DNA of 64,000 nt. It comes from Pseudogymnoascus verrucosus. Its lineage: Eukaryota. Made by a program: the position numbers and the translations under genes. A model generated the notes under the pieces. The model was not told the origin of the DNA and made no database searches. It was given only the letters and a program-made list of their open reading frames with translations. This document shows, piece after piece, positions 6,662 to 58,145 of this stretch (positions are counted from its first letter, which is position 1; every line of letters begins with the position of its first letter). The stretch lies in assembly GCA_001662655.1 (NCBI GenBank), contig KV460266.1; one strand, 5' to 3'.

Positions 6662-7612
6662 CTGCCAAGACCACCACCAAACCGTTCCCCGTTGTCAGCC
6701 TTCCGCTTCCCTGTTCCCGCTCTAGGACCAATGCTGCTTTTACCTGCACTGCCTCAACGCCCACACTTCTCCACTTGTGGCGACCATTAAAGAGGCCCAA
6801 GAGCGCTTAAAAGCGGGAAACGGTTGGTCGATTTCCGAAATTTGCCTCGAGCCTTTCGAAAGGCCGCATCCTGTGTCTTCGATTATGACAGCGGCTTCCT
6901 GGAAACGGGAGATGGTTGGCTGGCTCCAGAAATTTGCCTGGGCCCTCCGAATGGCCGCATCCTGGCTATTCTCACGTTCCTCGAAACGCGAAACGGTTGG
7001 CCGATTTCCGAAATCTGCCTGGGCCCACTCGAACGGCTGCATCCTGTGTATTTGATCACGACAGCGGCTTCCCGGAAACGCGAAACGGTTGGACGATTTC
7101 TGAAGTCTGCCTCGGGCCTTCCAGAAGGCCGCATCCTGTGTCTTCGATCACGACGACAGCTTCATGGAAACGGGGGACGGTTGGTCGATGTCTGCCTCGG
7201 GCCTCTCGAGCGGCCGCATCCTGTGTCTCCGATCACGACGGCGGCTTCATGAAAACGGGGGATGGTTGGTCGATTTCCCAAAACGTTTCCTCGGGGCTTT
7301 TCCTCGGGGCTTTTTCCAAGGCTACATCACGGCAGCAGCTTCATGAGAACAGGGGATTGTTGGTCGATTTCCCAAAAATGCCTCAGGCCTCTGGAAAGGC
7401 CGCATCCTGTGTCACCAATGGCGACAGCGGCTTCATGGGGACGGGAGATGGTTGGCTGGTTTCGGAAATCTGCCTAGGACCTCTCGAATGGCTGCATCCT
7501 GTGTCTTCGACTTTATGGAAACAGGAGATGGTTGGCTGGCTTCAGAATTCTTCTTCAGGCTTCTCGAAAGGTCGGATCCTGCGTCTTCGATCACGACAGC
7601 AGCCAACAGCAA
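6662..7612. repeat. Family A element head followed by an imperfect tandem array (~9 units, ~82-92 bp)
   Basis: Recurring GGCCGCATCCTGTGTCTTCGATCACGACAGCGGCTTCNTGGAAACGGGAGATGGTTGG, with cores near 6866, 6957, 7039, 7131, 7216, 7402, 7494 and 7575. The head at 6662-6720 (CCAAGACCACCACCAAACCGTTCCCCGTTGTCAGCCTTCCGCTTCCCTGTTCC) matches the copies at 9.1, 22.6 and 58.1 kb. Confidence 0.9.
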
Positions 7613-7792
7613 CCTAAGACGCGTGAAAACAGTTGACTGGTTCCATAAATACTGTCGTGCCATCCATCGACTCAGCGTGGTCTCCCCCGAGTTCCTAAAC
7701 AACTTCGTTCGGTTTCCTACGGTTATACAACAATTTTCACTGCCCTTCTAACGAAATTCGCTGGACAATCTTAGCAACACATGCTATATATC

Positions 7793-8904
7793 ATGGTGTC
7801 GGGTACTAAAGGCGACGATCCTAGGGAAGTTGCAGAACGCAAGAGGCCATACTATGGTTCTCGAGGTAAGAATATCAACATTTGTATACTGAGCTGTGCT
7901 AACAGTACATAGTTGACAAATCGCCGCAAAAGAAGCAACGCCTTTCCTCACACATCGGTAGCTCTTCGCCCCGATTACCTCCCGAAATAATCATGCAAAT
8001 CATATCCGAAATTATAGACCGAAGAACCCTTCTAAGGGTTTGCCTAGTGAATCAGGCTTTTAAGGGCTTCCTCAGCATAGATTCTTTCCGTTCTGCCTAC
8101 ACTGAGGAAGTTAGGCGTGGAGAGTATACATCTGATAATGCGATCGACACTATTACTAAACACATGAAGGAACATCGAGAGGCGGCTCTGATGATTTTCG
8201 AAGTTACTTGGAAAGGTATGATCCACGAAGGGCAGTTGAAAGGTGCTGTTGCTTTCCTAAACCGCCTTGGTTATAGGCTGGATGAAGAAGATTTTGATAC
8301 AGTACTACTGTCATTGCGAACTATGTATGATACGGTTGTTCTAGGAACTTCATGGGACACCTGGGCAGCTGCGCTTACAGCAGCAGATTTCTTACACGAG
8401 GAATATCGAAATAATGACACTTCAAAGATGATACGAAGGATACGGCATGAAGCCGCTTCAAGGCGACGAGAAATAGTATGCCAGAGTATGTTACAAGTCC
8501 AGCAGGACAACGCCTTCTGTGTGTTAAAGGGCCTACGTCAATATTACGATCTAGAGTTGTATCGTGAGAAGAGGGATTCTGAAAAAAGGACGAAGATCAA
8601 TGACGCCTTAATCGAAGTTGTTCAGGCAATGCTCCGTCTTTCTATTCAGGAACATCAATGGGCCGAAGCCTGTCGTCAGGCATATGCACTATTGGACCTT
8701 AATGGAGACGTCGACAGTTACCTTCAAACACTCAAAAACATCTGTAGTCAGGCGATTTCGGAGGATCGGTGGGCGGATGCTATGGAAATAATGGGTTCAT
8801 TCAAGAACTATACAGATGTTGCAAAGGAATCGCTAGACAGCCTTCGAAGTCAGTGGTATGCGGCGGACGGGATAAGATGGACTTATGGAAACGCTGTCTT
8901 TTAA
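7793..8904 (+). CDS. F-box-like protein (paralog 1 of a tandem pair)
   Basis: ATG 7793, intron 7866-7912, then LPPEIIMQIISEIIDRRTLLRVCLVNQAF (F-box-like). Shares SAY..E.R.GE, FE.TWKG and TSW..WA.AL.AA with 9396-10729. Confidence 0.7.
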
Positions 8905-9112
8905 AGCCTAATATTATATAATGTGGACGAATTATAAAATAGTGCCATGTGCTCGATACCGTTGTTTTCTAGCCTCAGGTAGTTTTGAGCCTCTTGATAC
9001 CAGTCTATTTTTATCCCGAGACGCCCCTTTAATTCTTGCCGAATAGCTTAATCCGCTCTCTATGGTGATGGCCATAGAAGTTATTTCCAACAGCCGTAGT
9101 CGCTCTTGGCCA

Positions 9113-9250
9113 AGGCCACTACCAAAACCGTCCCCCGTTCTCGACCTTCCGCTTCCCTGTTCCTGCATCCTGTGTCTTCGATCACGGCTTCGTGGGAACA
9201 GGAGATGGTCGGCTGGCTTCGGTGCTCGGAGGGCCAGAGGTCAAGTAGCC
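9113..9250 (+). repeat. Family A dispersed element copy
   Basis: CCAAAACCGTCCCCCGTT...CCGCTTCCCTGTTCCTGCATCCTGTGTCTTCGATCACG...ACAGGAGATGGTCGGCTGGCTTCGGTGCTCGGAGGGCCAGAGGTCAA; near-identical to the reverse complement of 22530-22690. Confidence 0.9.
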
Positions 9251-9395
9251 AGCACCACTAATTCCTTAAATACTGTTGTGCCGTCTAACAATCTCATTAG
9301 TTTTAATGCGATATAAAACAATCTACATTGCCTTTCCGAATCCTGAATATACACTCCTAACAAAACCAAGTTACACCGTCTCAGAAGGAAGAACT

Positions 9396-10729
9396 ATGTG
9401 TGACAACGACCAGGCTGATCTCAAGGCAGTTGTGAAACGTAGGAGGTTAGGAGGTAATAGTATTATTATCAGCATACTAAGCTGCGCTAATAGTGCATAG
9501 AGAGCCCTATTAGGGATAATTTGTCCCTATTACCTGCTGAATTGAAGTCACAACTTTTCTTCGAAATTTCGGACCGAGAAACGCTTTTGAATCTTTCTCT
9601 AGTATCCAAGGTGTTTAGAGCTGTTTTTGATGGGAGAAAGAAGGAGTTTTTCTTCTCCGCCTACGCTAAAGAGTTTAGAAACGGAGAGCTTACGTATGAG
9701 GATGCAGCTACAGCCATCACTAAATATATAAAAGGAGAACCAAAAGCAGCTCTAATGCTTTTTGAAGCTACTTGGAAAGGCCTCTTCTATATATCTAAAG
9801 AAGAGGCTAAGCTTTTCGAAAAAGTTCTTCGCCGCAAATTAGCTACACAAGACTACGACACATTGCTTTTGTCACTATATAATATATACGACCAGAGTAT
9901 TCTGGAAACTTCATGGGGGGCCTGGGCAGGTGCACTTGGAGCAGCCGAACACTTAAGAAATCACTCTGATAAAGGAGAAATCCTTAGCATAAGGATGGAG
10001 CCATGGATACTACGCCAATTCGCTTCAAGACAGCAAGAACTGATAGGCCGGGGCGTGTTACAACTCCAGGAGGAACCTGCGATCTCTGTATTAATGGAAT
10101 TACGACGCTACCATGAAATACAGCGGCGTCGTGAGGAGGAGAGGCATCTAGAATGGAAGCATCTTGAAAGGAAGAAGAAGCACATCAACAACCAAGCTGA
10201 GGTGCTTAAGACCATAGTCCATCTTGACTTCAAGGCCATCCGGTACTATGATCGGGTTGATATGTTCCGACTAATAGCAGATTTTATGGTCCTCGAGAAC
10301 CAAGTCAGCCCTGGGCGCCATGCTGATTTCCATGGCGGGGTGCAGCGCATATGCGATCCCTCAACATGCCGTCATACTGCAGACGCCGACGATTTATTCC
10401 GCGTACTTGAAGAGATCTGCACTGAGCTTATTTTAAAGAATGACGATGACAACGCTTACTGTGCAATAAGTGTATTCGAGCGTATGCCACCGTACTATAA
10501 ACACATTGCTAAAGAACGACACAGAAGGGTTCGACGTATGTTCATTGTTAGGTGGGGGGACTTATTTGACGAGAGCGATGAGAGCGAGGACGAGAGCAAT
10601 GACAAGAGCAAGGACGAGAGCAAGGACGAGAGCAAGGACGAGAGCAAGGACGAGAGCAAGGACGAGAGCAAAGACGAGAGCGATGCATGGACGACAAGGA
10701 CGAGCGAGAACGAGTACGCGGACCTTTGA
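9396..10729 (+). CDS. F-box-like protein (paralog 2) with a (DESK)n tail
   Basis: Short first exon MCDNDQADLKAVVKRRRLG, an intron, then LPAELKSQLFFEISDRETLLNLSLVSKVF. A 12-bp GACGAGAGCAAG repeat spans ~10568-10685. Confidence 0.7.
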
Positions 10730-11959
10730 TGTGAAGACATTGCTACGGAACGACTAGAAAGCCCCTACCGGCAGGACCGGTGGCGTGGCAGGATGTGCAG
10801 TGAATCCGTAATTCCCTGAGGGCCTAGGTAGACGAATTATAAAATTTGCTGAAAAGCTGACGTCGCTTCTACCGCCATCATTCATTCAAACAGTCTCTTG
10901 ACTCAAACGCGTCATCCTTTCTCAGATCCCATGCAACGACCATAATCCCCTCATCCCCATCGTACTCTACATTGACTTCGTACTGCTCCATTTGATATTT
11001 GAATTCCCCACGTCCTAAATTCGGACTTCGTCGCCTATGCTGTATCGTACAATCCCGTTTGCCCACTAACCTCGTCAGCTCAGTCCTATGCTTCCCTTCC
11101 TCGAGACCAGTTCCGTTTCCGATTTGGCGATAGACTTCCTAGTATGGATTCGGCTCATTCGAAATCAATCCTAGTCGATCCGGGTGGGGGAGAACGCCCT
11201 GCACTCCCAGCTTTCAGACCCGCAACACGGCTGTATTGTTGGATAATCAGATTCGAAAGCTTAGAAGGCCATACAGTGGACATAGATGACAAGTATCCAT
11301 TATTTTACTCATAGAATGCCTGCTAATCCGACGAAATTGAAAGGGGAGAAATTTCTCACTACTATCTAGCTTCAACTGCTATTTAGCTACAATGTAAATA
11401 CCAACACGATCTCAGGGTTGATATTGAAAACTCTAATGACTACTTTTGCAAAACTTGAAAAGCATAATATGTAGATAAAACCTCCTCCGGGCCTTCTGCT
11501 AGAGTATTGTGAGGTAAGTCTAGTGAACTATACCAGACGTATCGTAGAGATATGTAGGCCATGGGATATTAGGATATAGTCATATATTTATGCCTAGAAC
11601 AACTCTTGGGATACTGTTTAATTGGAGTGTTTTGTCTGTAACCGCTGTCCCGCGATTTGGATCTCTCCACTCCGCACAGAGGTAGTGGTTCGCGTTGGTA
11701 GGAACTTACGCCTGGAACTATCCCACCTGGCTCACCGAGAACCCCCTGCAGTACGTACTCTAAACAATTGAACAATATAAACCACCCATTCCTTCCTATT
11801 GCCATCGCTCAGTCCGCGGTCTTCCATCCACCTGTCACTACAACCATTCCCTCCTATGCAAACCAAAACTAAACCCCCAACGCACAAATACCGCCCGCTA
11901 CTTCCACCTCCCGCCCGCCAGCGCGTTCATTTGTGCGCAGCAGCGCCTTTTCGCTCGGA

Positions 11960-13887
11960 ATGTCGACAAACGCCGCCAACGCTCTTCTCGCGGAATCAAG
12001 AGCACTCTCAAAGTACGTTGCCGGAGAGAACTAGCCTTAGGACATTATATAGATTGCTTGTGAATAGCACTAACTATAAGCAGGGATGATGCCAGCTCAC
12101 TGAAACTCAGCGATGGACACACGCAAGCAATCGGCTTGGAACAGTCCCCGTCAACGTTTTGCTCAGCCCTGCAATTTCAAAGCGCCAGATCCCTTCCAAC
12201 CCGAGGCGAGCCTCGATGCTCTGTGGAATTTACATCCAGCGATGACCCCTCCCAGGGGATGATTAGTCAACTAGTGGCATGCCCGACAACTCAGGAAGAG
12301 GTAATAGCTGAAGTCGATCGAACATATGACATGATAGTGATTATGGAGAAGAAGTGTGTCGAAGTGCATTTACACCAAGCTCAACTCGCAGAGGAAGCCC
12401 TACCTGGGGTGCAACCCGAGTTGAATACAGAGCAATATCAGACCTTCCTCGACATGCATAAGACTCTGCTTAACGAACAGTACGAGTTTCTCCTTACATC
12501 TCAGCATCCTTCTGCTACGCCTGAAGTGCGACGCCTGCCACTCGAGCGTAGTATGCCTACAAGGCTATATCGCTACGCTATTCATGATTTTCTGGAGCTC
12601 CTCCGCAATAGACTTCCCGCGTCCCACGACTACTTGCTTACCTTTATACACTTTGCCTATCCGATGATGACCCTTCTCCTCGAGACTGTCCCAGCGTTTG
12701 AGAGTATGTGGTTTGAATGCCTTGGCGATCTAAGCAGGTACAGGTTAGGCATAGAGCGCCACGACCCTAGTAGCAGCATCGTTTGGGCCGAGATCGCACG
12801 CCAGTGGTATCTGAAGTCAGCTAACTATGCTCCTGCAATCGGACGCCTATACTACCACCTCGGAAGTATGGGCCGGCCAGACCCACTCCTACAACTTTTT
12901 TATGCCGGAAAGACTCTTGCAGTCCCTAATCCCTTTACGGCAGCACGAATGTTAATCACAGGGGTATTTGAGGCAAATCTAAACACAGTAGCAAGCAAGA
13001 TCTCCCTCTCTGCAGCTATTGCTGCCATTGTGCGCGCCCATGCAATCATCTTCACAGGACACTCCCTTAATACTTTTGACGAGTCTCTTAGGGAGATAAA
13101 GAGCAATCTCGACAGGCACATTACACGCAGCACCAAGGAATATCTACAACAAGGGTATTGCATTGCTATTAGCAATTGCATCGCCCTCCTCGGCTACGGT
13201 GCAGATAACAACCCCCTTGCTGTCCTCCTCAAGCCGCAATTCTCCAACCAAGACACCATCATGGCTCACGCCAACTCCACCACAAAATCTCCATCTACAT
13301 CTACTCTTCCTCCTACCTTCGCCGCCGCTCTCCGCCTGTTCGCCCAAACCGCCGAAATCCACCTCCTCCGCATAGACGACAAAAACACGCTCTCCTTCCT
13401 GCACGTCACCCTCGTCTTCATCCGCCACGTCGCTGGCTACTCTGCCGCTGCTACCTTCCTCTTCCCATCCTTTCCCTGGCGCCACATTGTGTACGCCCTT
13501 AACGGCACAGCCGTCCGCCAACCCCCTAAGCCCTCCACCAACAAACCCCCCAACCTCGCAAGCGCGAGGGACCAGGCTCGCCCGCTTCAAGAGGAGTGGG
13601 CTATGCGCGGTCTCTCCTTTGCAGAAGGGCATTTCCCGGAAGAGCTGTTCACGAACAAGAATGTAGATCTAGAGACTCACTACCCCGAGGCAGAAAGCAT
13701 GCGCTCCCTGGAGCGGCTCGAGCGTGTACACAAGCTCGGCGTGCAGATTGCGGAGTTAGCGGGGGAGTGGATGAGTTATGGAGGCACAGAGGGGAAATAC
13801 GCATTTTGTTGGAGAGAAAGGCAAGAAGTTTGCGGACGACGAGGAGGAGAGAGAGAGCGGAAGCGAAGAAGGAGTCTTCTGGAATGA
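11960..13887 (+). CDS. Est1/SMG-like DNA/RNA-binding TPR-domain protein
   Basis: ATG 11960, intron 12013-12110. Motifs MEKKCVEV, SQHPSA, FLELLRNRLP, LLETVPAFESMWFECLGDLSRYR and P.IGRLYYHL match the fungal Est1 DNA/RNA-binding family. Confidence 0.8.
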
Positions 13888-14234
13888 TGAGGAGTAGAGG
13901 TTAAAGAGGTCGTTTTATCGTAGAATTGCAACTCTTTATCTTCGTGCCTTATTAGCCCTATAAATTGGCATATCGACATGCATCTATATCCTAATGAGGC
14001 CGTTTAACTTCAGTAGTTGAGAAGACACTACTTGATAATACTACCTCGAGACTAGCCCGATCGTCAGCTTTAGTGTTGTTTGCTTAGTCCTTCCTTTTGC
14101 TGGATTAAAAACACAGAATGCGGTTTTTTGAGAGGCCTAAGGCAGATATCTGAATCATGACGCTGTCTTCATTGAGTAGGTCTCTGAGGGGTCTCTATCC
14201 TAATATCCCATAGCCTACATATCTCTACTCTGAT

Positions 14235-15617
14235 TCAGCCTGTAAATGACGGATCCACAGCTTCAAATGAGCGCATAACGGCCATTGTTATTACTGGGTA
14301 GCCCATAATAACATCATGTAAGCCAGTCTTGAGAATTTCCTCCCGAATAACACCGTTTTCTGCCCGCCATTCCATGACTGACCCTGCAGCGCCTAGATCT
14401 ACCTTAGATTCCAATTTTCTTGCTTTGAGATCGTCGTAGCTTATTCCTGCATACACTGAAGCGTTGACAGCATGCCAAAAGATAGTGGGGGTGTGATGCC
14501 ATGGAATATCATAATCGTCCTCGGCATGTATGATCGTTAGGCGATACATCTCTCCATTAACTTCATTAGCTTGGACGTATTGTGCAATGTTGTCTTTGCT
14601 CAACCATTTATCCTGTATAAAGCGTAGAAGGTAGTTGAACAGCAGCGGGAGCTTCGCAAGCGGCGCCAGGAGAGGAATAGTTCCTGCAACTCGGTAGCTC
14701 GCGACAAGTGTTGCGACATCAACAAATGGTGCAACTAGGATGGTGCCTGCAAAGACGACGGGTGGACTTTGGAGAGCAAGGTGCTTAGACACAGCGATGC
14801 TCACAGCCGTGCCCATAGATTGAGCAAAGATGAGAATACGGGAGGAAGGGATGCTGGCGACGTTCATGGCCCAGTCCGCAACGGCAAGGGCATCCATTAT
14901 AAGTCCGCTCTCGCACGGTGTGCCAGTGCTACGCCCAAATCCTCGATAGTCAAATGTCAAGACATGAATCTTTCCAGGCTGGCCTGCCGACAGTGCGTGA
15001 TAGTTAGGAACTCTATAGCCTGAGCCCACGGTTCCCCCAGCACCATGCATGTGAATAATTAGTCGAGCATCAGGATTATCGCGCAAAAGTTGGAAAGCTA
15101 GTCGAGACGTGATATCGGAAACGAAACCAGTTGGTTCAGCAACAAGAGGAAGCTCGTTTTTGCGATACAACTCTCTGGGAAGAATATGCCAGGCGTAAAG
15201 ATGTTCACCATCGGATGTCTTAATTGAGAAAGGCGTAACCTGGTTCTTTAGAAAGCCAAAGGTCTCAGGGACATCGAGATCCTTGCACCACGTCATCTGA
15301 ATTGCATGTAGGTAAACAACATGGGATTGAAAGGTCGACGTCGTCAGCAGTCCCAGTAGTGCCGTATACAGCCCAGTCGCAACTGCTACCGAAATGAAGG
15401 CATATTTCGCCGCCGTCATGATTGGCAGAGGTGAGGTGCAAGAAGTGTTGGTGCTGTTGAGGCTGTTAACCGCTGTGGAAGATCGTGCCATAGCTGGCTC
15501 CTCAAGGGCTTTCTTCCGCCCATACAGAAGTGATGCTGGAGCGGATCTTGGTGAATGGGGGTCTCGTTGCTGCTCCCAGTTGCTGTTTGTAGTACAACTT
15601 TCATAGGTTTGAGACAT
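14235..15617 (-). CDS. Alpha/beta hydrolase (ABHD12-like) with an unrelated N-terminal 40 aa
   Basis: HMHGAGG, FDYRGFGRSTG, AQSMGTAV nucleophile elbow, IIHAEDDYDIP and GLHD, plus an N-terminal TM helix. The first 40 aa match ORFs 37227 and 41959. Confidence 0.85.
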   Translation of the reverse strand: MSQTYESCTTNSNWEQQRDPHSPRSAPASLLYGRKKALEEPAMARSSTAVNSLNSTNTSCTSPLPIMTAAKYAFISVAVATGLYTALLGLLTTSTFQSHVVYLHAIQMTWCKDLDVPETFGFLKNQVTPFSIKTSDGEHLYAWHILPRELYRKNELPLVAEPTGFVSDITSRLAFQLLRDNPDARLIIHMHGAGGTVGSGYRVPNYHALSAGQPGKIHVLTFDYRGFGRSTGTPCESGLIMDALAVADWAMNVASIPSSRILIFAQSMGTAVSIAVSKHLALQSPPVVFAGTILVAPFVDVATLVASYRVAGTIPLLAPLAKLPLLFNYLLRFIQDKWLSKDNIAQYVQANEVNGEMYRLTIIHAEDDYDIPWHHTPTIFWHAVNASVYAGISYDDLKARKLESKVDLGAAGSVMEWRAENGVIREEILKTGLHDVIMGYPVITMAVMRSFEAVDPSFTG

Positions 15618-15709
15618 GTTTGCGGCCTCTCAAGGTGCGGAAGAAGCTTATGGTAATTGATAGAACTACAAATAGGAAGATTGAAGACGTGAATAGTGCT
15701 CTAGTGACG

Positions 15710-15810
15710 GTGGCCAGGGCATCGTTGGCCAGAGTTTCCAAATGAGGACAAGTGCACTTTGAGCCCATGGCTGCAGGGGGTCAGTGAGAAAACGGTGATG
15801 CAGGGACGGT
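15710..15810 (+). repeat. Family B dispersed element copy
   Basis: CGTTGGCCAGAGTTTCCAAATGAGGACAAGTGCACTTTGAGCCCATGGCTGCAGGGGGTCAG; homologous to copies near 33520, 35325, 37100 (reverse complement) and 42590. Confidence 0.85.
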
Positions 15811-17534: not shown

Positions 17535-17788
17535 CCTCAGAATATCGACAGAGCTGTGTACAGGTCGGGACTATGAAAGTACTATCTTGTCACCGGGTGT
17601 GTCTCTCTGTAAATAGACGCTCCTGTTGTTCAGTTAAAGTAAAGTTCCGCTTCACCTATCACAATGACTTCGCGAAGACCAGAGAGTTGTCTAAAACAAT
17701 CCTGCCTCGAAGTGTTATAGTCGTGCCTCGAAGTGTTATTTGGTGTAACACTCCTTGTGAAAGAAAGTCGATTCTGTGATGACGAAAG

Positions 17789-18430: not shown

Positions 18431-18468
18431 TGAAGGTATGGATTGTAATGTATACTGTTATTATATGT

Positions 18469-18655: not shown

Positions 18656-18752
18656 AGGCTACAACTTTCTCAAATCTAATGATTTTCGCGCAAGCTCTTT
18701 ATAGTCCTAGAAATATTAAACAATTGTGCACCTAACACCGTTATTAGTCTAC

Positions 18753-19706: not shown

Positions 19707-22180
19707 TTACATTGAGCCGGAATCGCCTTCATCCTCACTCCGTACAGAGCCATCAGCTATGGCATCGCCTTCTTCTTCCTCTTCACCATCAGTTTCCGGA
19801 AAAGTGGTCTTTCTCTTTGGATGCGCGCTTTTCAGGGGTGTTTTCTTTTGATACTTCCTTGTTCTTGTCATTCTAGCCTCCTCTTTAGTAGCCTTCTTGC
19901 GACGTGGTTGGGCATCTTCTGCCTGAAGTTGAGCTTCAAGTTCTTTCTTAGATAGCCGAAAAACGCGCTCCGTGGGTGCCTTGGGGGCTTTTTGCCCAGA
20001 TTCTATCATGTACTGATTGATCTTTGCCCGAACGGCGTTTTCGCCGAACGCCTTCGAGAGATTACTTTCACTAGCCCACATGAAAGCAGTTCCAGGAAAT
20101 TTGACGTTAACTAAGCTGACAGCCTGGATCTTGTACATTTTTTCATCTTTGCGGCGTGGAGACATAACACCGCCGACTAATACTTGTCTCCAAGGTCGAT
20201 CTTTTAGGTCTTTGGGGGTGACAGTTTTAATCTGTTTACCCTGATGCATCGCCTGGAACTCTTGGAGAGCGCCGGCAAAACTTCTGGCGGGAACGAGCTC
20301 AAAAATAAAACGGTTCTTAAAATCTGGATTAGTTCCATGACTTTTGAGGACCAGCTGGTAGCCGCTCCCGCACGAGCGAATGTTAGCGACTCTCTTCTGT
20401 CGCAAAATCCCATCTTCCACCTCCTCAACCACCCCTGGTATAGAGACAGATACAATGCACTGTTCATCTGTGTCTTCTGCCGGAGGAGCCTCGGTCTCTG
20501 CAGCGTTTTGAGCAGGCGGTGGAGNNNNNNNNNNNNNNNNNNNNNNNNNNNNNNNNNNNNNNNNNNNNNNNNNNNNNNNNNNNNNNNNNNNNNNNNNNNN
20601 NNNNNNNNNNNNNNNNNNNNNNNNNNNNNNNNNNNNNNNNNNNNNNNNNNNNNNNGTGGAGCGTTTTGAGCAGGCGGTAGAGCGTTTTGAGCAGGTGGTG
20701 GACCAGATAAAGCAGGCGGGGGAGCTGCTTCTTTGGCGATAATCGACAAAATCTCATACACTGTTGGGAGAAAGGTATCATGAAACGTCTTTGGCCACTG
20801 GTGCTCTTGTATAAAAAGCCATGCAGCTTCCCTTAGACCTATGTACTGTGACATAATGTTTGGGTCGTTAGGGGTAGTCTTTAGCAAATTCTTGCATGTA
20901 ACAGCTTGCTGTACCATCTCAAAGAAGGGATTGAGTTGAGCGTCACCTATCGCATAGGTTGCTGGGTCGATCTTATTTGCTTCGCAGAATTTAGCTTGCT
21001 CGTTTGATAAAGCTAGAAGCTTTTGGTATGCTTCATTGTATGCTTCATTGCCTTCTACCCCATTTAGTTTAGCATCGATAAGGGTGAATAGGGGTCCATC
21101 GCGACCACCCATTCTAGAACGGATTTCATAGATCTCTTTTGGTAGTGGTTTCTTTTCAGACTGGCCGTTCTCACCATTTCCAGGCTCCTCAACATGCGGT
21201 TCATCATCCACACCTGACATAAGGGATGCGGTGTCAGAATCATCATCGTCCTCCTCTAGTCCAAAATCCGGTAGAGTATAATCGTCCTCTCCTTCAATAG
21301 GAACATATACCAAGCAAGAGACCTCTATTTTTTTCTCTGCCGACTTGTACTTTTGGTCGAGATTCTTCGTTTGCTTTTTGCTGACTTTTCCGTTTTGGCT
21401 CCTTCTCAACTCTTGCTCCTCGTTTTTTCGTTCTACCGCTAGGCGCTCTCTAAATACCGTCCGCACTAACATGTCAATATCGTCATTAATATTACTCAAC
21501 TCTTCAAGAATTCCAGTCTCAATAGATGAATCACGTGCGCCGCCTTCCGTGGCTTTCATATAATTGAGGTGGTAGTGCTGAAGTTCAGAGGCTTTGCGGT
21601 ATGGTTTTGCTAGTGAACTCTGTAATGCAGGAGTTGTAGTCACTATTGACTGGAAGTCATATTGGTCGTTGAGCTTTGGCTCTACTAACCCGTATGTATG
21701 AACTTGTCCAAGGAACTCATCTCGATCCGCGGCTAGATTTGTCGAAGCAATGGCGTTGTTAACCTCCTCTAGTTTAGCCACTTGCTCTTTGAACTGCAAA
21801 CGTAATTGTCTTGCGGAATCTGTAGGACCAGCAAGGAGCTCCTTAGGAGCTGTCTCAAATGCTTTAATATCTTTCTGTCTCTCTATTTCTCCCATTTCGA
21901 GTGATTGGAGTATTTTGGCTTGAGTTGCTTGGAAACCTCGGGCAGCTCCATATTGAATCGTCCAGAACTTGAGGCCCTCCTCGTTGGATTTCTCAATTTC
22001 AGATAAGTGAGATTTATCAAAGACATGTGGAATAGGCAGGCGCGACTGTGGCTTGGCGACATAGTTGTCTTCGATTTGAAGTTTGCCGGTTTGACCGCCA
22101 CTGGTCTGATTTCCTCCAGCTGGAGCTCCTCCACCCCCGGTGACTTGATCCGCCGGCGTAGCTACACTGATGGATTCCAT
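19707..22180 (-). CDS. Hypothetical coiled-coil protein spanning an assembly gap (ORFs 20204-22180 and 19707-20432 are probably one gene)
   Basis: PPAQNA repeats flank both sides of the N gap. Roughly aa 48-480 are homologous to an internal segment of the DUF3723 protein. Confidence 0.65.
20525..20655. other. Assembly gap inside a PPAQNA-coding tandem repeat
   Basis: Run of N with GCGTTTTGAGCAGGCGGT on both sides. Confidence 0.95.
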
Positions 22181-22477
22181 TTTTGCTTGATGTTTGCTTG
22201 ATAAAGATTGGCCAGCAATCTGTTCAATTTATGGTTGGAGATAGGTTATCGTAGTGATATGTTGCGTACGCGATGAGATCTTCTTGTGTTGCAGTAATTC
22301 AGCAGTTTTTGAAGACATCATCTGCCATTTTATACTTTCTAGCACAACGCGGATAACTGTATTCTGGATACTAATAACTGATATCAAGGTTCAAGTTTCC
22401 TTATTCAGAATACGGTCATTTGCGGGTCCCTTAAAAGGTCCCTTAAAGGCCCTAAAAATAGGTGGCCATTAACTACA

Positions 22478-22690
22478 CCTCGTTTCCATGAAGCCGTTGT
22501 CGTCATCGCGGACACAGGATTCAGGGTAATTGACCTCTGGCCCTCCGAACAAGAAGAAGGCAGTAGAGGTCAAAGCACCGAAGCCAGCCGACCATCTCCC
22601 GTTTCCACGAAGCCGCTGTCGTGATCGAAGATACAGGATGCAGGAACAGGGAAGCGGTAGGCTGACAACGGGGGACGGTTTTGGTGGTAT
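22478..22690 (-). repeat. Family A dispersed element copy plus a partial second unit
   Basis: GCCAGCCGACCATCTCCCGTTTCCACGAAGCCGCTGTCGTGATCGAAGATACAGGATGCAGGAACAGGGAAGCGG...AACGGGGGACGGTTTTGGTGG; partial unit at 22481-22520. Confidence 0.9.
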
Positions 22691-22922
22691 TAGAAGCGGA
22701 GTAAGGATAACGGCTATTAGAAATGCCGTACTTTAAATGAGAGAATTAGGTTGAATCTATGAAGCTATGTCTTCGTGTTCTAGTGCATGGAACTTTCTGT
22801 AAATATAGCTGCCATGGGCATCATCATAGAGAGCTTGGATGGATAGATCGAGCTCCCCTAAAATAGCTCGTATTGCCATGAAGGTCTAACTATGCCCTTT
22901 ACAATATGATGTCTTTCCTCTC

Positions 22923-25176: not shown

Positions 25177-25201
25177 AGACGCAACTCAACGCAACAGCAC
25201 C

Positions 25202-48500: not shown

Positions 48501-49894
48501 GGCCATGGCGAACCAGCGTGGTCCCGAATGTCTGGTTCTGCGCTAGGCGCAGCATCCATGCGAATGTGATAAGAAGGTCTCGAGGGACTGCATATGAGTG
48601 GCTGCTATATGTATCGATCTAGACATATTTAGATTCAAAGAACGGAAATGCGGATGCGAGTTTCTGTAAACCGTGGTGTTGGTGGCGTACTCATACGAGC
48701 GGATTAGCCACCCAGGACCTTTCCTATGAATACCCGGAAGCATTGGACAGGAGAATCGAGATAGAAAACATAGATAGATACGAGCCCGCCAGCTACAGTC
48801 TCCCCGCCTCACAGTTTTTGCTTTTTCCGATATGATCACTTTGCCCTCTATGGATTTCGGCCACTTTGATGTGGATGCGTATCTACAGCTCCCACTAGAG
48901 AATGCGAATATGCCCACGGCTCCTGTTGCACCCATGGTACCCACGTCACCCATGGCCGCCGTCCTTCCTGCGACGCCCCCATCGGTGGACACCTTATACG
49001 ATGACCTCTACAATTACGGAGAGACTGCGCCTGGGATTTCAGAGCTCGATTGGCTGGCCCACGATGCTATCNNNNNNNNNNNNNNNNNNNNNNNNNNNNN
49101 NNNNNNNNNNNNNNNNNNNNNNNNNNNNNNNNNNNNNNNNNNNNNNNNNNNNNNNNNNNNNNNNNNNNNNNNNNNNNNNNNNNNNNNNNNNNNNNNNNNN
49201 NNNNNNNNNNNNNNNNNNNNNNNNNNNNNNNNNNNCCCACGATGCTATCGAGCCTACAAGGCTAAACCGCCCGTCAATCGCCGTTAGAGATGCTTTCGTT
49301 CAAGCAGACCTAGATGATCTGGCCCCAGATGATCTGACTGACCAGCTCACCAACGAAGCAAACGAGCCGCACACGCCTGATGTGCAAACCCAGGTTTACA
49401 TGTCCCAAGAGGACTCCTTCGGAACCAAAGAGGATAACCATTTGGAGAACCGCGCTGCAATCAGGTATGGGCTTATCTTGGTACACCACGTTCACAGAGA
49501 GACAAGTTAACACTATAGCAAGCCTTGTATTAGAAGAGATTGGAATACTACGTGCTGAGCGGGCTGCCACCGAGGATAAGATGAATAAGATAATGGCCGC
49601 CATTACTAAATACAACACTTTCACGGAGGAAGCACCCGTACTGATTCAGATGCTTAGCGAAAAATTAAATACAGTGACCCAAAATCACAAACAGGATAGA
49701 TAGGTGTTTGTTTAGAGAATATTTAATAAATTACTAAGTCAAACTTCTTCTATCAATAGTGGTATGTATTGGGAATATCCGTAGAGCCAAGAAGTCGGCG
49801 GAGATCCCCGCCTTGGCCTACTTATCACATCCGCATGGATGCTGCTCCTACCGGCAGTACCAGGCATTCGGGACCACGCTGGTTTGCCACGGCC
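48501..49894. mobile_element. ~1.4-kb unit bounded by ~75-bp imperfect inverted repeats and containing one hypothetical gene
   Basis: 48501-48577 matches the reverse complement of 49817-49894 (shared AACCAGCGTGGTCCCGAATG and GCAGCATCCATGCG.ATGTGATAAG). No transposase or TSD seen. Confidence 0.5.
48832..49703 (+). CDS. Hypothetical protein spanning an assembly gap (N 49072-49235)
   Basis: ORF pieces lie on both sides of the gap, and CCCACGATGCTATC is repeated on both gap flanks. Probable intron from 49465. Confidence 0.5.
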
Positions 49895-51232: not shown

Positions 51233-51571
51233 TCATCTTATGACATATTTCTCGTTCTCATTCTTTACCTTCTTACTCACATTGATTAAAGCCTTGCCTT
51301 TCGTATCTTGCACCTTTTGCTTATCATCGTTGCTTTTTCGTTTCCTAGACACACAGTTTGAACGTGGTTCCTTAATACAATGCACGTCTTCAAAATAAGT
51401 TCTGAAATCTAAAGGAGACTCAAGATGCGCGTTGCAGATAGGGTACGGACATTCCGATTCCGCATAAGGAGTAAGGTGCGTGTTAATATGATTGACCAGC
51501 GTGGACTTCGTCATCCATTGCTGCATCCTCTGAGATGGCAAGAGGTCCTCATTACCCAGGCAGAAAGGACA
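51233..51571 (-). pseudogene. C-terminal zinc-finger fragment of a DUF3435 captain-type protein
   Basis: Reads CPFCLGNEDLLPSQRMQQWMTKSTLVNHINTHL...CPYPIC...FRTYFEDVH.I.EPRSNC..RKRK. The 5' part is absent, replaced by the GATC-rich element. Confidence 0.65.
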
Positions 51572-52070
51572 GGAAATCGATCGTATAGATCGATTTCAAA
51601 CCCTTGATCGATCGACGATCAAATCGATCGATTTGATCAGATATAGTTCTCAAAAAAGCAGAGTCAGACCTGTGTAGGGCACTGCTTCAGGGAATGATCA
51701 AATGGGTGGAAGCGGAGGCATCGGCACTTAGCTATTACCAACCTGCACGCTTACTGAACCGGCTCAGCACACGAGTACCGGACGAACTGGACGCTCCATT
51801 GCGTCGCATTTTATCCCTTTTAGCTCTCTGCTTCGACCCGTATTTCGGCCTCAGGCAGCATCTGGTAACTGACGGCAGGAGCTGTTCGCTCGCTAATTGG
51901 CCAGTGCTTCTTTTTTTAGAGGCCCTTGCGGTCGCGATCAAATCAATCGACCAAGTTGTCTAGTCCAAAAAGTATCGATCGACTAGGCACCTCAAATCTA
52001 TACGATCGAATCGCAATTGATCTTCTAGTCGAATCGATCAAATCGATTGGTCGATCGATTTCCAACCCTG
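51572..52070. mobile_element. Non-autonomous hAT-like/MITE remnant with ATCGATCG subterminal repeats
   Basis: Dense ATCGAT clusters at 51574-51640 and 51935-52062. The right end reads CAGGGTTGGAAATCGATCG on the minus strand (CAG-start TIR as in fungal hATs). The left end is a partial GGAAATCGATCG. No 8-bp TSD. Confidence 0.55.
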
Positions 52071-52603
52071 CTAGTAATAAAAGATTCACGGTCACTTATG
52101 ACGATATGATCTTATTCCGTACGTAGTTTTGTGACGACTTTTACAACTGACATATTGAGGAAAAATATCCTAAATGATGATCCATACGTCTCTATCCTAG
52201 AAAATGCAGATGACCTGTATAGTGGATCATATCTCCTCCAAACATTATTTGACACTGAGGATACTACGAAGAGGCCTAATACTATTAGCTAGCTAAATAT
52301 TTGCACAAGAGCCGTTCATTACATGGCAGGAAGAAGCGTCAGCGGCCTTCTCAGCTAATGGCAAGCAGCTGGGTGAGACTAGTCGCTAACGTTACTATTA
52401 CGTATTGCACTATCAAAGTTCTTACGTCGTTGCTTGTAATTGCCGTTAATTGGGGCGAAAAGTGCTCTCTTCAGCCCTTCCTCTTTGTATATAAGAACAA
52501 GCCGTTCTCCATTTAGGCAAAGATTTTTAAACATGTTAACTAACGCCACTTTCTTGCCTCAATCTCTCAGTTGAATATATTCATAATTCTTTCAATTTTT
52601 ACC

Positions 52604-53113
52604 ATGGAGACCGCGGAGGGTTTTCGCATTGGGGGTATTCACATTCCCACTCCCAATCTAGGTGTAACAAAAGAAGAAGAAGTTACAAACCGCAATGAAG
52701 TACGAGCTGCAATTGCAGAAGGAGGTTGGGACGTTATTTGGGGAGACCTGATTAATGAAGGAGACCTTCTTACATTTATCATTTCGCTGCCTACAGGAAC
52801 TACAGGAGAATGGGTTGCTCTGCAGGTCCAGGCTCAGTTGGCGAAGTTTTCCCAGAGACTGGGTGATGTTTCTGAGGTAGTTCTTGCGCAAGCGACTAAT
52901 TTTATAAACGGCCTGATAAAGAGAAAGGGTTCTGGAGAAACAGATATCAATGGACTAGGAATCAAGGGAGGCTTTGCCACCTACCACCGCCACATGGAGT
53001 ATACGCTCGCGGGTGCAAAAGTTGGCAGTCACGATCTGCCAAACAATCAACAACCATACATTGCTTTACGCGTTACCAAACCTCTACCACCAAAAGGGGC
53101 CTCATTTGTTTAA
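52604..53113 (+). CDS. Hypothetical intronless protein
   Basis: 169-aa ORF with a globular-looking composition (GWDVIWGDLINE, GGFATYHR, LPNNQQPYIALR); TATATAA upstream. Confidence 0.6.
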   Translation: METAEGFRIGGIHIPTPNLGVTKEEEVTNRNEVRAAIAEGGWDVIWGDLINEGDLLTFIISLPTGTTGEWVALQVQAQLAKFSQRLGDVSEVVLAQATNFINGLIKRKGSGETDINGLGIKGGFATYHRHMEYTLAGAKVGSHDLPNNQQPYIALRVTKPLPPKGASFV

Positions 53114-53956
53114 TCATGAACATTAATCGACGCTCCCTTTATTGCGGTGTTCGGACACCTCGGTGAGTTTAACCCTTTGCAAACGTCGCTGAGCAACTGT
53201 CTGATGGTTTAAATTAGAACAGAGCCCCTTCGTCAAGACTGTGGTTTTCTTCTTTTGGTTTTATCTACGCTCGTTATATAACATCGGAAATATGAAATGT
53301 GGGTTTGTTATGGACGGTAGTGTTGCGTTGCTCTTCATAATTAGGACTAGGAGAATTGAGGATCTGTATCTAAAAAGTTGTAGTCCACATGGTGACCATA
53401 TTTCTTGGCAATAAATTGCTAATATGCGGTGATAACTAACGTTTTTGTACATTGTACACCGAACGATCCAACACACCGAACGGTCCACCCCATTTTACAC
53501 TTAAATCATATATTCGCAGCTTAATATCTCTGCATTCTCTTAATAATAAATTAGTTATAAAAATACTACGGTAGTATAGGAGGCAGCACGAGTACTATAC
53601 TCAGATAGTTATGTGAGTACTACACTCACATACTCCCGTAGTGCTCATATAACTACACTCATATACGCATGTATGGCTTTAGGTGTCATCATGTTAATCA
53701 CGTCAAAGCCAAGGTGGATGTTATCGGCACGATTTGCCAACAATATTAGTTTGACTAACTTACCAATCGTCGGAACCTACCCTGAGGTAAACCTCAGGGT
53801 TCGGGATGAGCAAACGGCGTTCGCCAGCGCTCGCCGCCACTTCATATCGCTGGCCGTAACCTCAACATATCTATAGCTAGTAATTTGTATACTATAACTC
53901 TTATTTTAAGTCTGCATGCCGTAGCTCCATAGTTTTTAGTGTATTCAATTTTATCA

Positions 53957-54601
53957 TTACTTTAGTATCAGCTGTCCTCCTTGCTTCTTCATGATTGTAC
54001 AGCCTTTTGAGCTAGCAAACTCAAGGCTAAAACTTTCATCGTCTGTCAAATCTTGAATAAAACCGCCATGTGTAACAACAATAACGTCCTTTCTCATGTT
54101 GCTTGGTACTTGCGCCAGCACATCAATTCTCCTCTTTACATCACCTAGAACTTTCTGTGCCCTCGCCTTACGATTAGCGGGTGAAAACAGGTCTTTCTTA
54201 AGCGGCCACGGGGTTTCTTTAAGAGTAGAGAAATCCAGATTCAGCCATTCATTTTTCAAGTTTACGACGGCTGATCCGGTATTGCAGGGCTGGTCGCCAA
54301 CTTCTTGAAGGTACGGATCCAGGACTAGATCTGCTCCCCCAACTATACCGCCTTCACCTTTGAGATAGAAACCTTCGTCGATCACATCAATGAAGGCCAA
54401 GAGCGTAGTATGTATCGATCGCCTCAAGGGAGATGTGAGTATAGTTCCAATTGTATCAGTGCCGAGGGGTGCAATGTTTTGGCCAAGTTGCACCGACTGT
54501 CTTTCACCCCTAAGAGTCAATCTCGGGTCGGGAATGCTGACGTCGTCGTTAACGTTATGGAGACCGTGGCCGTGTCTGATGAGAATAACCTGTCCCGCCA
54601 T
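53957..54601 (-). CDS. Histidine phosphatase / phosphoglycerate-mutase family protein
   Basis: LIRHG, DPRLT..G..Q, SPLRRSIHT, LQEV...PCNTGS, VVTHGGF. Confidence 0.9.
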   Translation of the reverse strand: MAGQVILIRHGHGLHNVNDDVSIPDPRLTLRGERQSVQLGQNIAPLGTDTIGTILTSPLRRSIHTTLLAFIDVIDEGFYLKGEGGIVGGADLVLDPYLQEVGDQPCNTGSAVVNLKNEWLNLDFSTLKETPWPLKKDLFSPANRKARAQKVLGDVKRRIDVLAQVPSNMRKDVIVVTHGGFIQDLTDDESFSLEFASSKGCTIMKKQGGQLILK

Positions 54602-55689
54602 TGCTGCTAAATATTCTGTCGATAGGTGATGGTATATTGGATGAGGACGTAGAAGGATAAATCATACTGTGCAGGATGAGAGAAGGCCAATTAATTAATT
54701 AATTAAGAACGGCAATGGAAATGGAAATGGAAAATCGAAATGGAAAATCCCTCTTTTACTTTCTAACGACGCAATCCTAGCACTGCAACCAAACCGTCGT
54801 TTTTCTTCGAGTTCTATAACGAAACAGCGCCACCATCCAAATGAGCTCTGATGGCAAATATCGACGAATCACCATTTCGCGAATTCTGCTATCGTATTCG
54901 TGAATACAGGCCTTTCGCCATATGTCCGTCTGGTCACATATAGAATAGGTAGAATATGAGTTGATAATCTGGCGCAATGTGATAGATTACAATAAGATAA
55001 CTACGTACCATTTTCTAAGAGAGATGATCTGCAACCTTGGCGAACATTAGCAACATTGTTGCCGTCATCCTAAGTTTGACTGCTTGGTATCTCTGGCTCG
55101 GCCCAGTCAGCCCAATCAATTCGCCAGGTTTTAATTAAGTTACATGAACTAGTCAGAAACCAATCGAGATCTAACGTTAGAAGATGCCAGAAATAATAAA
55201 TGACGTGATAAGGTAGTGACGGATCACGAGGATCAGATGGAATTAATCGTGTGAGTGATCTAAGACCTATCGAGATCTGGGGAGATGAAAACAATGATGA
55301 TGAATGATGGAGCGATAACATACCATTTAGTCCAAGTCCCGTTCGGCCCTTACATGGACCATTCCATCTACCACAAACCTGGCTTTTTTCAGCGCCATCT
55401 TTGCACCTTGTGAGATCTACAAAGTAGTCTAGCCTTATGAACCGAAAAGCCTGTGTACGCGATAGCGCAACCCCTGCGTCATCACCAAAGTGTTGCCAAC
55501 ATTCTTCGGGGCAACTTTTGAGGAGTGGTCCTTAGTCAAGGTATATAAATGTTGTGTACACGGTGAGAATCAAATGTAAATTCTTGTTTTTGGATCCACT
55601 AGAGTTGGTCAAGATCTTTAACGACCTGCTCACAAGAATTAACCTTGTACCCTTTAGTCACAAATAGCCTCCATATCATATCAATCATC

Positions 55690-57025
55690 ATGTGCGACAA
55701 CCACGAGTCTGGGGCTGTGAGACCCCTAGATGCTTGTCGTCGATCACCATGCTGATCTCTTACTGCAGACTGGCCACTTCGTCCCCGCCTATATCCATAA
55801 GCACATTGCTGAGTCCGCCGCTGCTCCGGATAAAGCCCGGCAGGCTGCTCTGCGCACCCTCTCCGTCGACCAGGACTTTCGTGGGCAGCGTGTGACAGCC
55901 TCTGAGACCGCTGCAGCACCCTGTGCTGCAGACGAACCTGGAGTATTGGCAGCCCAAGTCCCCATTGTAAGATCACGCTATGTCACACCCTATGTTTTCG
56001 AGCACGTCGTCTAGAGCAAAGAGGCAGGCGATGAGGCTCGAGAAAGTGCAAGGGCAACATTGAAAACAGATGCTAAGATACGCGAACAGAGAGCTGCTCT
56101 TATTGGTCCTGCGGCGACAGACGAGCCCCATGATCATTTAGCTGCTCCTTTCCAACTGAAGCGCCTTATTTACGATGCAAAGGGTAGCGGCAATCTTCGC
56201 GGCACTCTTGCTCGCGCAGAAGGTGCTGGGCGAAATACTGACAGACAGGTCAACAATGTCTATGATGCTATTGGCATCACGGCCATGTTCTTCTATACGG
56301 TGTTTGGCCGCAACTCCGTCGACGACAAGGGCGGCAATATAGTTGCTACTGTCCACTTCGACAGCAAACCCGATGACCAACTTGGCTACAACAACGCCTT
56401 CTTTTTCGGCACCGAGTTTGCTTTCGGCGATGGCGATGGCATCATCTTCGACTATTTCACCGATGCACTTGATGTCGTGGCGCACGAACTGACTCACGCC
56501 GTCACCAAATATACATCTGGGTTCACTTACAAATTTCAGACTGGAGGCCTGAACGAGTCCATCTCCGATGTCTTTGCCGCGTTGGTCGAGCAATGGCACT
56601 TCAACCAGACTGCGGCTGAGGCCGATTGGCTAAATGGCCAGAGTCTGTTCCCCGTTGCCATCAGGGGCCCGGCTCTCCGAGACATGGCCAACCCGGGAAC
56701 TGCATACGATGATTCTATCCTCGGGCGGGACCCCCAGATTTCTCATTTCAGTCAGTATAACGATGACCTGAGTGTCCACGTAACCTCGGGCATTCCCAAC
56801 CGGGCGTTCTACCTAGCTGCCATTGGCTTCGGTGGCTATGCATATGATAAGGCTGGAAAAATCTGGTATGCCACTTTGACCGACAGCCGCATCGAGGCAA
56901 TTGCCAAAACTGCCACTTTCAAACAGTGGGCAGACGTGACGGTTGATCAGGCGAACAAGTTGTTCGGTACTGGTGCAACAGTCATTGTCCGCAATGCTTG
57001 GATCGCTGTTGGTGTTCTCGTCTGA
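55690..57025 (+). pseudogene. M4 (protealysin/thermolysin-like) metalloprotease with one in-frame TAG in the pro-region
   Basis: ATG 55690, intron 55717-55768. YNNAFF, FGDGDG, HELTH, GGLNESISD and VH.TSGIPN are intact. TAG at 56012-56014 lies between the in-frame ORFs 55730 and 56060. Confidence 0.8.
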
Positions 57026-57904
57026 TGCTGAGCATGACGGGAAGTTATCGTTAGCTAATATGACGGTGAATGTACTTTATAAACTGGCCTCGAGTTGTTT
57101 CTGCTCTATGTGTGCATGTTTTCAACGAAATGATCTGTGTCTCACTTAAGCTGGCGCTAGAGTCTACTTCCCGGCGCTCGATCGTTGTCATCTTGAGCTT
57201 CTCCAAGCCTACTAATTAATTTCGGGGAGGTTTTTCTGCGAAAAGAAAACCCGGTTTTCCTACTGTTGTAATACTGGTGCGATACCCGGCAATGCGAACA
57301 CCCCCGGGGTAACCGATCGGCCTACCTGGCAAGAGCCCAACTGAAGGAGGATGCAAGGGTTAACTATAAATATAGTCTGTGAATTGATCCGAGGAATTAT
57401 AAGATGACCTGTGAACTAATGCTAGGAAGTGTTATAGCGGGAATTAACCACGCATTTTATATTCAGATTGCTGAAATCGTAATGGACTCGAAACGTCACA
57501 TTTTGTCCGAAGTGTTATAGCCAAAATCTGTTTGCGGACTCAAAACAGCTAGCTTCATTAGACACAGTAGGAAATGACTAAAGTATTCCGGCATCATTAA
57601 TCGGTCGCGATTGTTGTCCTAGAATTGTTACTGTCCTAGATACTGTTTCTGGACTCAAAAGGCGCTAAGAGATTGACAGATCGGTAGATCGGTAGATCGA
57701 CTAATGCTATTACCTTCTAACCCCTCAAGTTTCGCCACTACCTTGGGACCAGCCCAATTGTTAGCTTTGGTATCCAACATGTTGAGGTTTTTGTATGATT
57801 TTAGCTTCAATAAGCGCAGTAAAACCGGTGAAGTTGTTCAAAGCGCACGAGTACTTTATATTTTTTTTGCTTTTGCCAGGAGGTTACATAACCTCTAGGC
57901 CACA

Positions 57905-58145
57905 CGGCAGCCCCCATTTCTATAAAGCTGTTACCTGGATTAAAGACACAGGATGCGGTTTTTTGAGAGCATATATCAGAATGGAGACAGAGGATGCAGC
58001 GCTTTGACCAACTGCACCCCGTTTCCATAAAGCCGCTGTCGTCATTGCGGACACAGGATGCAGGAACAGGGATGCGGAACGCCGAGAGCAGGGGACGGTT
58101 TTGGTGGTCGTCTTGGCGCGAGAGTGACGATAGCTCATAGAGACA
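57905..58145 (-). repeat. Family A element copy upstream of the captain
   Basis: CCCCGTTTCCATAAAGCCGCTGTCGTCATTGCGGACACAGGATGCAGGAACAGGGATGCGG...GGGGACGGTTTTGGTGGTCGTCTTGGC, plus a partial unit at 57910-57960. Confidence 0.88.

Follow-up and report, generated by a model that had tools for sequence, protein, structure and literature searches.

The window analyzed here, a stretch of 64,000 nucleotides (nt) of Pseudogymnoascus verrucosus contig KV460266.1 (assembly GCA_001662655.1), carries four copies of a noncoding repeat module near positions 6662, 9113, 22570 and 58020 (copies A to D). An original prediction, made from the letters alone, had described a structured element of ~110 bp linked to captains, the DUF3435 recombinases of Starship elements. 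What was reported as a discrete element is in fact an outer cap, here called the head (~65 to 85 bp), set on 1 to 10 tandem units of ~92 bp, and not a free-standing unit; the four places themselves are upheld by a hidden Markov model (HMM) of the head, built from these same copies, and by motif counts. Array and head together flank, on the 5' side, one paralog related to DUF3723 and the members of an F-box-like gene family restricted to Pseudogymnoascus (X1, X2 and an X-like remnant). The outer edge of the head is sharp, and in two copies it adjoins the 5' region of a captain. We tentatively favor, while putting it somewhat below an even chance, the reading of a repeat array that lies on the promoter side and ends at a docking site or att-like junction for Starships. 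The anatomy is observed; integration at the head and promoter activity are what we infer. The captain link rests on one window and on contig evidence from four other organisms, the latter being contigs of four sequencing runs (X4, X5, X6 and X11) from four coded organisms, and statements about these contigs hold among the pieces listed.

Heads and tandem units at four gene starts

The arrays were defined by Tandem Repeats Finder (TRF), motif anchors, a unit HMM and alignment, and the number of units varies from 1 to 10 between loci. The parts of the module are as follows.

6637..6720, minus strand: head A, an inverted partial unit whose terminal block ends CACAGAGA (6637-6644); nhmmer, and BLAST to head D at 79%
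6721..6795, no strand: spacer A, 75 bp, separating head A from its units; spacers of this type also stand beside heads in loose contig ends of runs X4 and X11
6796..7668, plus strand: array A, 10 tandem units of ~80 to 96 bp each, consensus period 92; TRF, anchors, unit HMM and alignment
9057..9166, minus strand: head B, with a 26-nt insert before the terminal CATAGAGA (9057-9064), 153 bp past the X1 stop; nhmmer and BLAST
9166..9236, plus strand: unit B, single; unit HMM
22448..22640, minus strand: units C, two copies; unit HMM
22640..22832, plus strand: head C, with an insert of ~109 nt before the terminal CATAGAGA (22825-22832); nhmmer and BLAST
57893..58060, minus strand: units D, two copies; unit HMM
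58060..58143, plus strand: head D, ending CATAGAGA (58136-58143); nhmmer and BLAST

A search of the window with the head HMM returned four full heads, at 6658-6720(-), 9105-9166(-), 22640-22702(+) and 58060-58121(+), with E values of 1e-17 to 1e-18 by nhmmer; the model was made from the four copies themselves, and these matches are by construction. The remaining five matches (E of at least 0.15) are the shorter unit motif within neighboring repeats. Pairwise BLAST identity among the copies is 79 to 91%, with B and C the most similar pair (87.8% over 115 nt) and A and D the least similar (79%, 6637-6720 against 58143-58060). The two best-conserved unit motifs are GCATCCTGTGTC, with 12 matches at one mismatch or fewer against 0.20 expected, and AACGGGRGAYGGTTGG, with 14 matches at two mismatches or fewer against 0.11 expected. 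Every match in the window scan lies inside the four loci, and neither motif occurs elsewhere in the window as a single site.

The head holds, within the ~65-bp conserved block that is the HMM region, the G-rich unit motif and the short CGG-containing block that precedes it, in an orientation opposite to that of the array. Because the unit motif sits there reversed, the head is a diverged, inverted partial copy of the unit middle. The nested inverted repeats that the original prediction had remarked upon arise because oppositely oriented unit copies meet where head and array join. The pairing between head and adjacent unit is imperfect, extends over ~17 bp and occurs in three copies; at 6662 (copy A) the two are held apart by the 75-bp spacer. 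Separately, a weak unit fragment lies near 14111-14175.

On the unit side, all four copies face a gene start 113 to 268 bp away: 113 bp for X1, 160 bp for X2, 113 bp for the X-like remnant and 268 bp for Y. The genes faced are three F-box-like paralogs, one of them a remnant, and one DUF3723-related paralog.

7781..8904, plus strand: X1, F-box-like gene, exon 1 at 7781-7864 and exon 2 at 7912-8904; tblastn with P0007
9396..10729, plus strand: X2, paralog of X1, exon 1 from ATG 9396, an intron and an F-box-like exon 2, with the same exon-intron layout as X1
57714..57780, minus strand: X-like first exon remnant, ATG 57780 followed by an intron donor; BLAST 9413-9465 against 57754-57702, 79%
20204..22180, minus strand: Y gene, ATG 22180, 59% identical in amino acids (aa) to part of the DUF3723 open reading frame (ORF) (27281-28576)

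The suggestion that this end faces starts at 7793, 9396 and 22180 was borne out, with 7781 or 7793 for X1, and a fourth start, 57780(-), had been missed. P0007 (358 aa), named a hypothetical protein of Pseudogymnoascus verrucosus at NCBI and F-box domain-containing in UniRef, is 100% identical to X1 over both exons. The Pfam F-box-like match of X1 (E 7.8e-5) is below the cut-off, and X1 has no Myb match. X1 and X2 share about 39 to 40% protein identity, and all 13 of the X-family protein matches that carry a name come from Pseudogymnoascus. Similarity carries on past the units to include X exon 1 and the intron that follows, and the units stand just ahead of TATA-like runs. No match to exon 2 of the X-like gene was found at locus D, where the rest of the gene is absent, and a conserved 3' terminus of the X genes was sought and yielded only an 18-nt common run. 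The module holds a fixed position ahead of gene starts in four of four copies, as a promoter would. That position fits the promoter role that had been suggested for it, and the role itself is putative for transcription. Moreover, the most constant neighbor of the module is the gene start on its unit side, in four of four copies, versus a captain in two of four.

An X-family fragment at 16151-16360(-) lies beside the left arm of a kb-scale inverted duplication. Runs of N occur at 20525-20655 (131 bases, inside gene Y) and at 49072-49235 (164 bases).

The head terminus and two broken captains

The original prediction ended the element at CTTGGC. Similarity among the copies extends past that point, up to a common terminal 8-mer, CAYAGAGA, that is present in all four (58136-58143, 6637-6644, 9057-9064 and 22825-22832). 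Beyond the 8-mer the flanks are unrelated in four of four copies, those of B and C being alike only weakly, and in two cases, copies A and D, the outer flank is the 5' region of a DUF3435 captain. Inserts precede the terminus in copy B (26 nt) and copy C (~109 nt), and A and D have none. So sharp a terminus indicates transposition or site-specific recombination, as four copies made by plain segmental duplication of a gene family would hardly all stop at the same nucleotide. A scan of the window for the terminal motif shared by B and C gave 12 matches against 5.8 expected, and the only exact ones are the two already known. A stand-alone unit like a miniature inverted-repeat transposable element (MITE) is not supported. 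Only one end is sharp, the other side running into X exon 1 where a second terminal inverted repeat would be expected, and no target-site duplication was seen, whether beside single copies or around the A/D and B/C pairs.

The window contains only two DUF3435 genes. Both lie at the head side of a copy, A or D, and in the same orientation.

58144..58574, plus strand: right captain upstream region, putatively the 5' interior of a Starship; contains a pyrimidine-rich stretch and a TATA-like run; unalignable to the left upstream region
58575..60159, plus strand: right captain, N-terminal 460 residues in 5 exons with canonical introns; Pfam and P0004 alignment
3699..4197, minus strand: C-terminal part (aa 477-642) of the same captain type as the right captain; tblastn with P0004 and P0005, 81 to 93%
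4772..5733, minus strand: left captain, C-terminal part only; P0001 (592 aa), aa 293-592, 87 to 88%
5736..6194, minus strand: degenerate N-terminal remnant of the left captain with in-frame stops; weak collinear match at 6116-5736, E 0.1 to 0.44

Against a Pfam PF11917 (DUF3435) cut-off of 25.8 bits, the two pieces of the right captain score 38.2 and 37.0 bits and the two pieces of the left captain 23.3 and 23.0 bits. Full-length relatives P0001, P0004 and P0006 match PF11917 with E values of 1e-32 to 2e-43. DUF3435 genes are detected at both places where they had been proposed, with the left gene's pieces under the cut-off, and the captain expected of a Starship is present, though both genes in the window are broken. 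The start proposed for the right captain, ATG 58575, matches residue 1 of P0004 (725 aa); identity is 88 to 95%, and P0004 aa 1-112 align to 58575-58910 at 94.6%.

The match of the right captain to its relatives ends at residue 460 (window 60158-60163), and contigs of runs X6 and X11 also depart from the window sequence at 60158. Because the match ends there and a C-terminal part of the same type lies 54 kb off on the opposite strand, the gene is split. The simplest history would be that ~56 kb, from ~4198 to ~60159, were inverted and a little sequence was lost at the joint. No repeat was found at the two breakpoints. Given such an inversion, DNA to the left of 4197 would be interior to the right captain's element, and DNA to the right of 60160 would belong to the left captain's.

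The left captain is a chimeric pseudogene, because the C-terminal half that is kept directly follows an N-terminal remnant ridden with stops. An N-terminal half was not found in the window at E of 1e-3 or less, where only weak, stop-containing remnants occur, and the part matching aa ~122-292 is absent. The ATG at 6194(-) opens only MFTFQT and a stop (6 codons), in frame with the degenerate remnant. The spacing of ~470 bp that had been measured to this ATG is thus similar to that on the right side only if 6194 is the ancestral start. From the head terminus to the captain start we measure 427 to 439 bp on the right and, provided that 6194 is the ancestral start, 438 to 450 bp on the left.

The captains are only 24 to 35% identical to each other in amino acids. 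What the two captain loci share is the head and the units; no alignment extends over the ~440 bp ahead of the start or over the coding DNA. The breaks in homology, at 58143-58148 and at 6632-6644, are positions that we take to be element boundaries. The original prediction treated the element as the captain's own, and this does not agree with a similarity that stops at the outer edge of the head, nor with a listed piece from run X4 that begins its match at 58148 and has no head. Captain linkage in the looser sense survives in part: two of the four copies stand at the only two DUF3435 genes of the window, in one orientation and at similar spacing, and the other two are without a captain. Separately, the C-terminus of the P0004 type (aa ~520-700; window 3699-4121(-)) contains four Cys-x4-Cys ... 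His-x3-His repeats that look C2H2-like by eye; no Pfam match to a C2H2 zinc finger was obtained there at E of 0.01 or less.

In the contigs of the other organisms, heads are deep relative to single-copy sequence: 264 versus ~35 in run X4, 180 versus ~30 in X5 and 2327 versus ~53 in X6. Head-matching contigs in all four organisms end their match at 58117-58137 and go on into differing flanks. Some continuations match the flanks of copies A and B, and others leave the match at 58063 for further units or for the spacer of copy A. The severalfold depth and the differing continuations therefore indicate that the module is multicopy and conserved in related genomes and that its outer flanks vary. 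A 1,354-nt contig of run X4 matches 58148-58366 with 14 differences in 219 nt and is preceded by 928 nt of other sequence, which suggests that captain-side DNA may exist there without this head. A captain-like region is highly repeated in X6 (depth ~800 to 1,900). No genuine copy was found in metagenome or viral contigs: the strict two-block head pattern had 0 matches in either set, and a looser 22-mer for the head hit three loci, chance matches in contigs of ~71% GC that lack a unit or full-head HMM match.

We note that the segment at 51500-57700, which holds a histidine-phosphatase-like ORF and a fragment of a thermolysin-type M4 peptidase, is uncovered in X4, X5 and X6 and covered in part in X11. 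In X4, a contig connects ~51.5 kb with 60163 across only ~1.5 kb, as estimated from depths. With cover missing and this join in X4, the segment may vary between species.

Possible docking at the head and other explanations

How two dissimilar captains came to face the same nucleotide would be explained if the head is DNA that Starships docked against, and not captain-borne DNA. The CAYAGAGA terminus at two copies would then be joined to the 5' ends of two different Starship-type elements, with the captain starts ~430 to 450 bp further in. It would be a preferred integration site or att-like junction shared by two divergent tyrosine recombinases, much as 5S ribosomal DNA (rDNA) is shared by several Starship lineages. 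The array itself would most likely be an upstream activating repeat that serves the unit-side gene and, after a Starship has come to lie beside it, perhaps the captain as well. The att-like or recombination-site role that had been raised among other options thus stays viable. PMC11162782 places the 5' boundary of a Starship usually within 2 kb of the captain, and 10.64898/2026.09.21.753150 gives 451 bp from edge to captain in Hephaestus; our spacings of 427 to 450 bp are near the latter and within the former, the left value being conditional on 6194 as the ancestral start. Docking also agrees with PMC10104507, which describes the repeats at Starship edges as homology to the target and not as duplications, and with the presence around the copies of auxiliary genes of Starship type. 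Moreover, the break at the left junction lies within an inverted repeat whose 7-bp arms match perfectly across an 8-bp spacer. This repeat and its counterpart on the right would fit a tyrosine-recombinase core.

Several points weigh against docking. The palindrome at the right junction matches at only 5 of 7 positions, and both palindromes were spotted post hoc. Both captains are broken, and hence neither element is demonstrably a complete Starship. No pair of empty and occupied alleles was seen, no direct repeat can be named, and a 3' Starship end with the remainder of the target was not found in the window, where inverted copies of the two captain-side termini or Starship 3' ends gave chance-level short matches only; such ends are either beyond the window or lost. 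A head beside 58148 in X4 is excluded only among the pieces listed, one window alone supports the captain link, and the promoter part is putative. Finally, the geometry fits equally well if a head-bounded region was inserted between the two captains.

That last arrangement underlies an alternative that we regard as unlikely, if worth weighing: the heads may be terminal inverted repeats of captain-less cargo elements, with captains just outside because an element landed between or beside them. An outer element would span 6637-58143 (heads A and D, ~51.5 kb) and a nested one 9057-22832 (heads B and C, ~13.8 kb). [quoted passage not shown] Indeed, the head orientations (minus, minus, plus, plus) form two nested inverted pairs, the interior has Starship-type auxiliary genes and no DUF3435, and B and C, the most similar pair, have a common insert type before the terminus as A and D both have none. 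An edge gene of opposite sense also has precedent in PMC12256816. Neither pair, however, has a matching target-site duplication, A and D are the least similar pair, no recombinase lies inside, and it would take coincidence to place a captain start ~440 bp beyond each end.

Perhaps the module is instead a conserved bidirectional regulatory region of a captain and F-box-like pair, bound by a factor, driving both genes and travelling with the captain, which comes near to the bidirectional promoter of the original prediction. We consider this doubtful. Both captain loci do have a divergent X-type gene and captain with array and head between them, the units lie just upstream of TATA-like runs, and the heads are better conserved (79 to 91% in nucleotides) than the X1 and X2 proteins (~40%) or the captains (24 to 35%). 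Two of four copies nevertheless lack a captain, homology between the captain loci stops exactly at the head edge, captain-upstream DNA in X4 has no adjoining head among the pieces listed, and the motifs are never single sites elsewhere in the window.

Equally doubtful is the idea that the module is inert, a dispersed repeat or minisatellite passed on as X genes were duplicated. Ectopic recombination and rearrangement, in a decaying region rich in Starships, would then have brought it beside captains incidentally. The region is indeed heavily rearranged, with a split captain, a chimeric captain and kb-scale inverted duplications, and similarity that runs from the units into X exon 1 and intron, like a unit number of 1 to 10, is what such inheritance would leave. 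Plain segmental duplication, however, does not predict the same terminal 8-mer with unrelated flanks in four of four copies. Nor does it predict that the only two DUF3435 genes in 64 kb both lie head-side in the same orientation and at similar spacing, for which a rough chance estimate is about 0.001.

A variant of docking, which we rate as improbable and slightly below the preceding two, makes array and cap a Starship landing pad read by the captain itself. The C2H2-like Cys/His repeats of the right captain type, seen by eye, could recognize the G-rich motif of every unit and of the inverted head. The recombinase would thereby be placed at the CAYAGAGA core, and divergent Starships would integrate at one nucleotide. 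The docked array might then be a captain enhancer, the chromosomal counterpart of the promoter effect reported for the 3' end in circular Hephaestus.

A structured noncoding RNA or cis-acting RNA element, to which the imperfect long-range pairing of head and unit in three of four copies might point, is very improbable and was rejected: the fourth copy (A) has no adjacent partner, fold z-scores against shuffles range from -1.30 to +1.41 (four copies, both strands, n = 8), an alignment fold of the three copies with an adjacent unit predicts a long-range stem with compensatory change in 0 of 27 pairs and an unfavorable covariation term of +1.45, and Rfam gave nothing at gathering thresholds over the whole window and only noise (E of at least 0.58) around the copies.

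What the module means depends on which of these explanations holds. If docking is correct, two divergent captains would share, to the nucleotide, a target in a lineage-specific repeat module, which would be a new kind of target niche, and a head with one unit (~150 bp) would be a small candidate substrate with which to assay binding and integration. Control of the captain by the same array would, if real, link target choice to recombinase expression. If, on the other hand, the captain link fails genome-wide, the element would simply be the promoter, rich in repeats, of a small gene family within an accessory region that has been rearranged.

Starship setting and known systems

The window holds auxiliary genes of the kind found in Starships: PF12520 (DUF3723) and PF01794 and PF08030 (ferric reductase) score above their cut-offs, and PF01734 (patatin) is weak (19.7 bits against a cut-off of 27.7). 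The DUF3723 ORF at 26406-29072(-), 1,757 aa, has long in-frame repeats of 24 to 30 nt inside it, and just upstream of the 5' end of the DUF3723 gene are eight tandem units of ~69 bp, each with a near-perfect palindrome (32877-33407). Clusters of 21- to 24-bp repeats around the palindrome CCAAGCTTGG occur at 18452-18668 and 35653-35742. A kb-scale inverted duplication (15566-17551 and 35783-37278, 76 to 88% identity) flanks ~18 kb that include locus C, the ferric reductase and the DUF3723 gene.

To our knowledge, the choice of integration site by Starship recombinases is known for few families, with a short motif, 5S rDNA and AT-rich DNA as the targets. We found no description of a captain-upstream tandem-repeat module or conserved noncoding element in the Starship papers that the search returned, supplementary tables lying outside the search.

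Comparisons can be drawn with several kinds of system. Like transposon ends with subterminal repeats and like MITEs, the module is short, multicopy and noncoding, with a sharp terminus and internal and inverted repeats. Unlike MITEs, it has no target-site duplication and no second matching terminus per copy, and one side grades into an X first exon. The tandem upstream activating repeats of fungal promoters resemble it in their direct repeats and CGG-containing motifs, here 113 to 268 bp before starts in four of four copies. It differs from them in that no known factor site was identified, in being more conserved than the adjoining genes and in its transposon-like sharp end.

The 3' terminal sequence of circular Hephaestus reportedly acts as a captain promoter, and the resemblance here is that a distinct module directly ahead of the captain's 5' edge could feed a promoter. 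An edge gene in the sense opposite to the captain is known at some Starships, according to PMC12256816. As at an edge with an inward-facing MYB/SANT gene, the gene here runs opposite to the captain and has its 5' side at the element edge. It is, however, F-box-like with no Myb match, it stands beside the captain and not at the far edge, and no circular or tandem form was demonstrated.

The closest parallel may be the site-specific Starship niches, namely 5S rDNA, TTAC(N7)A of the Hephaestus family and the palindromic Enterprise target. Unrelated captain lineages converge on one repeated target, 5S rDNA, according to PMC11162782. Independent elements at the same position and orientation are seen here at two of four copies, both in one window; copies B and C have no captain, their flanks past the terminus are only weakly alike, and no 3' junction lies in the window. 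No empty site, direct repeat or 3' junction was seen at our module, unlike at those niches, and both captains are broken. The putative target also differs in kind from the rRNA gene, the short motif and the AT-rich transposon DNA known as targets, in that it caps the promoter-side array of a lineage-restricted gene family. The likeness lies in a repeated sequence joined at one position and orientation to 5' ends that carry divergent DUF3435 captains, in a captain start ~430 to 450 bp inside the junction versus 451 bp in Hephaestus, and in a short junction palindrome. Docking at the head, if it holds, would thus be an instance of the site-specific targeting already known for Starships, with a new type of target.

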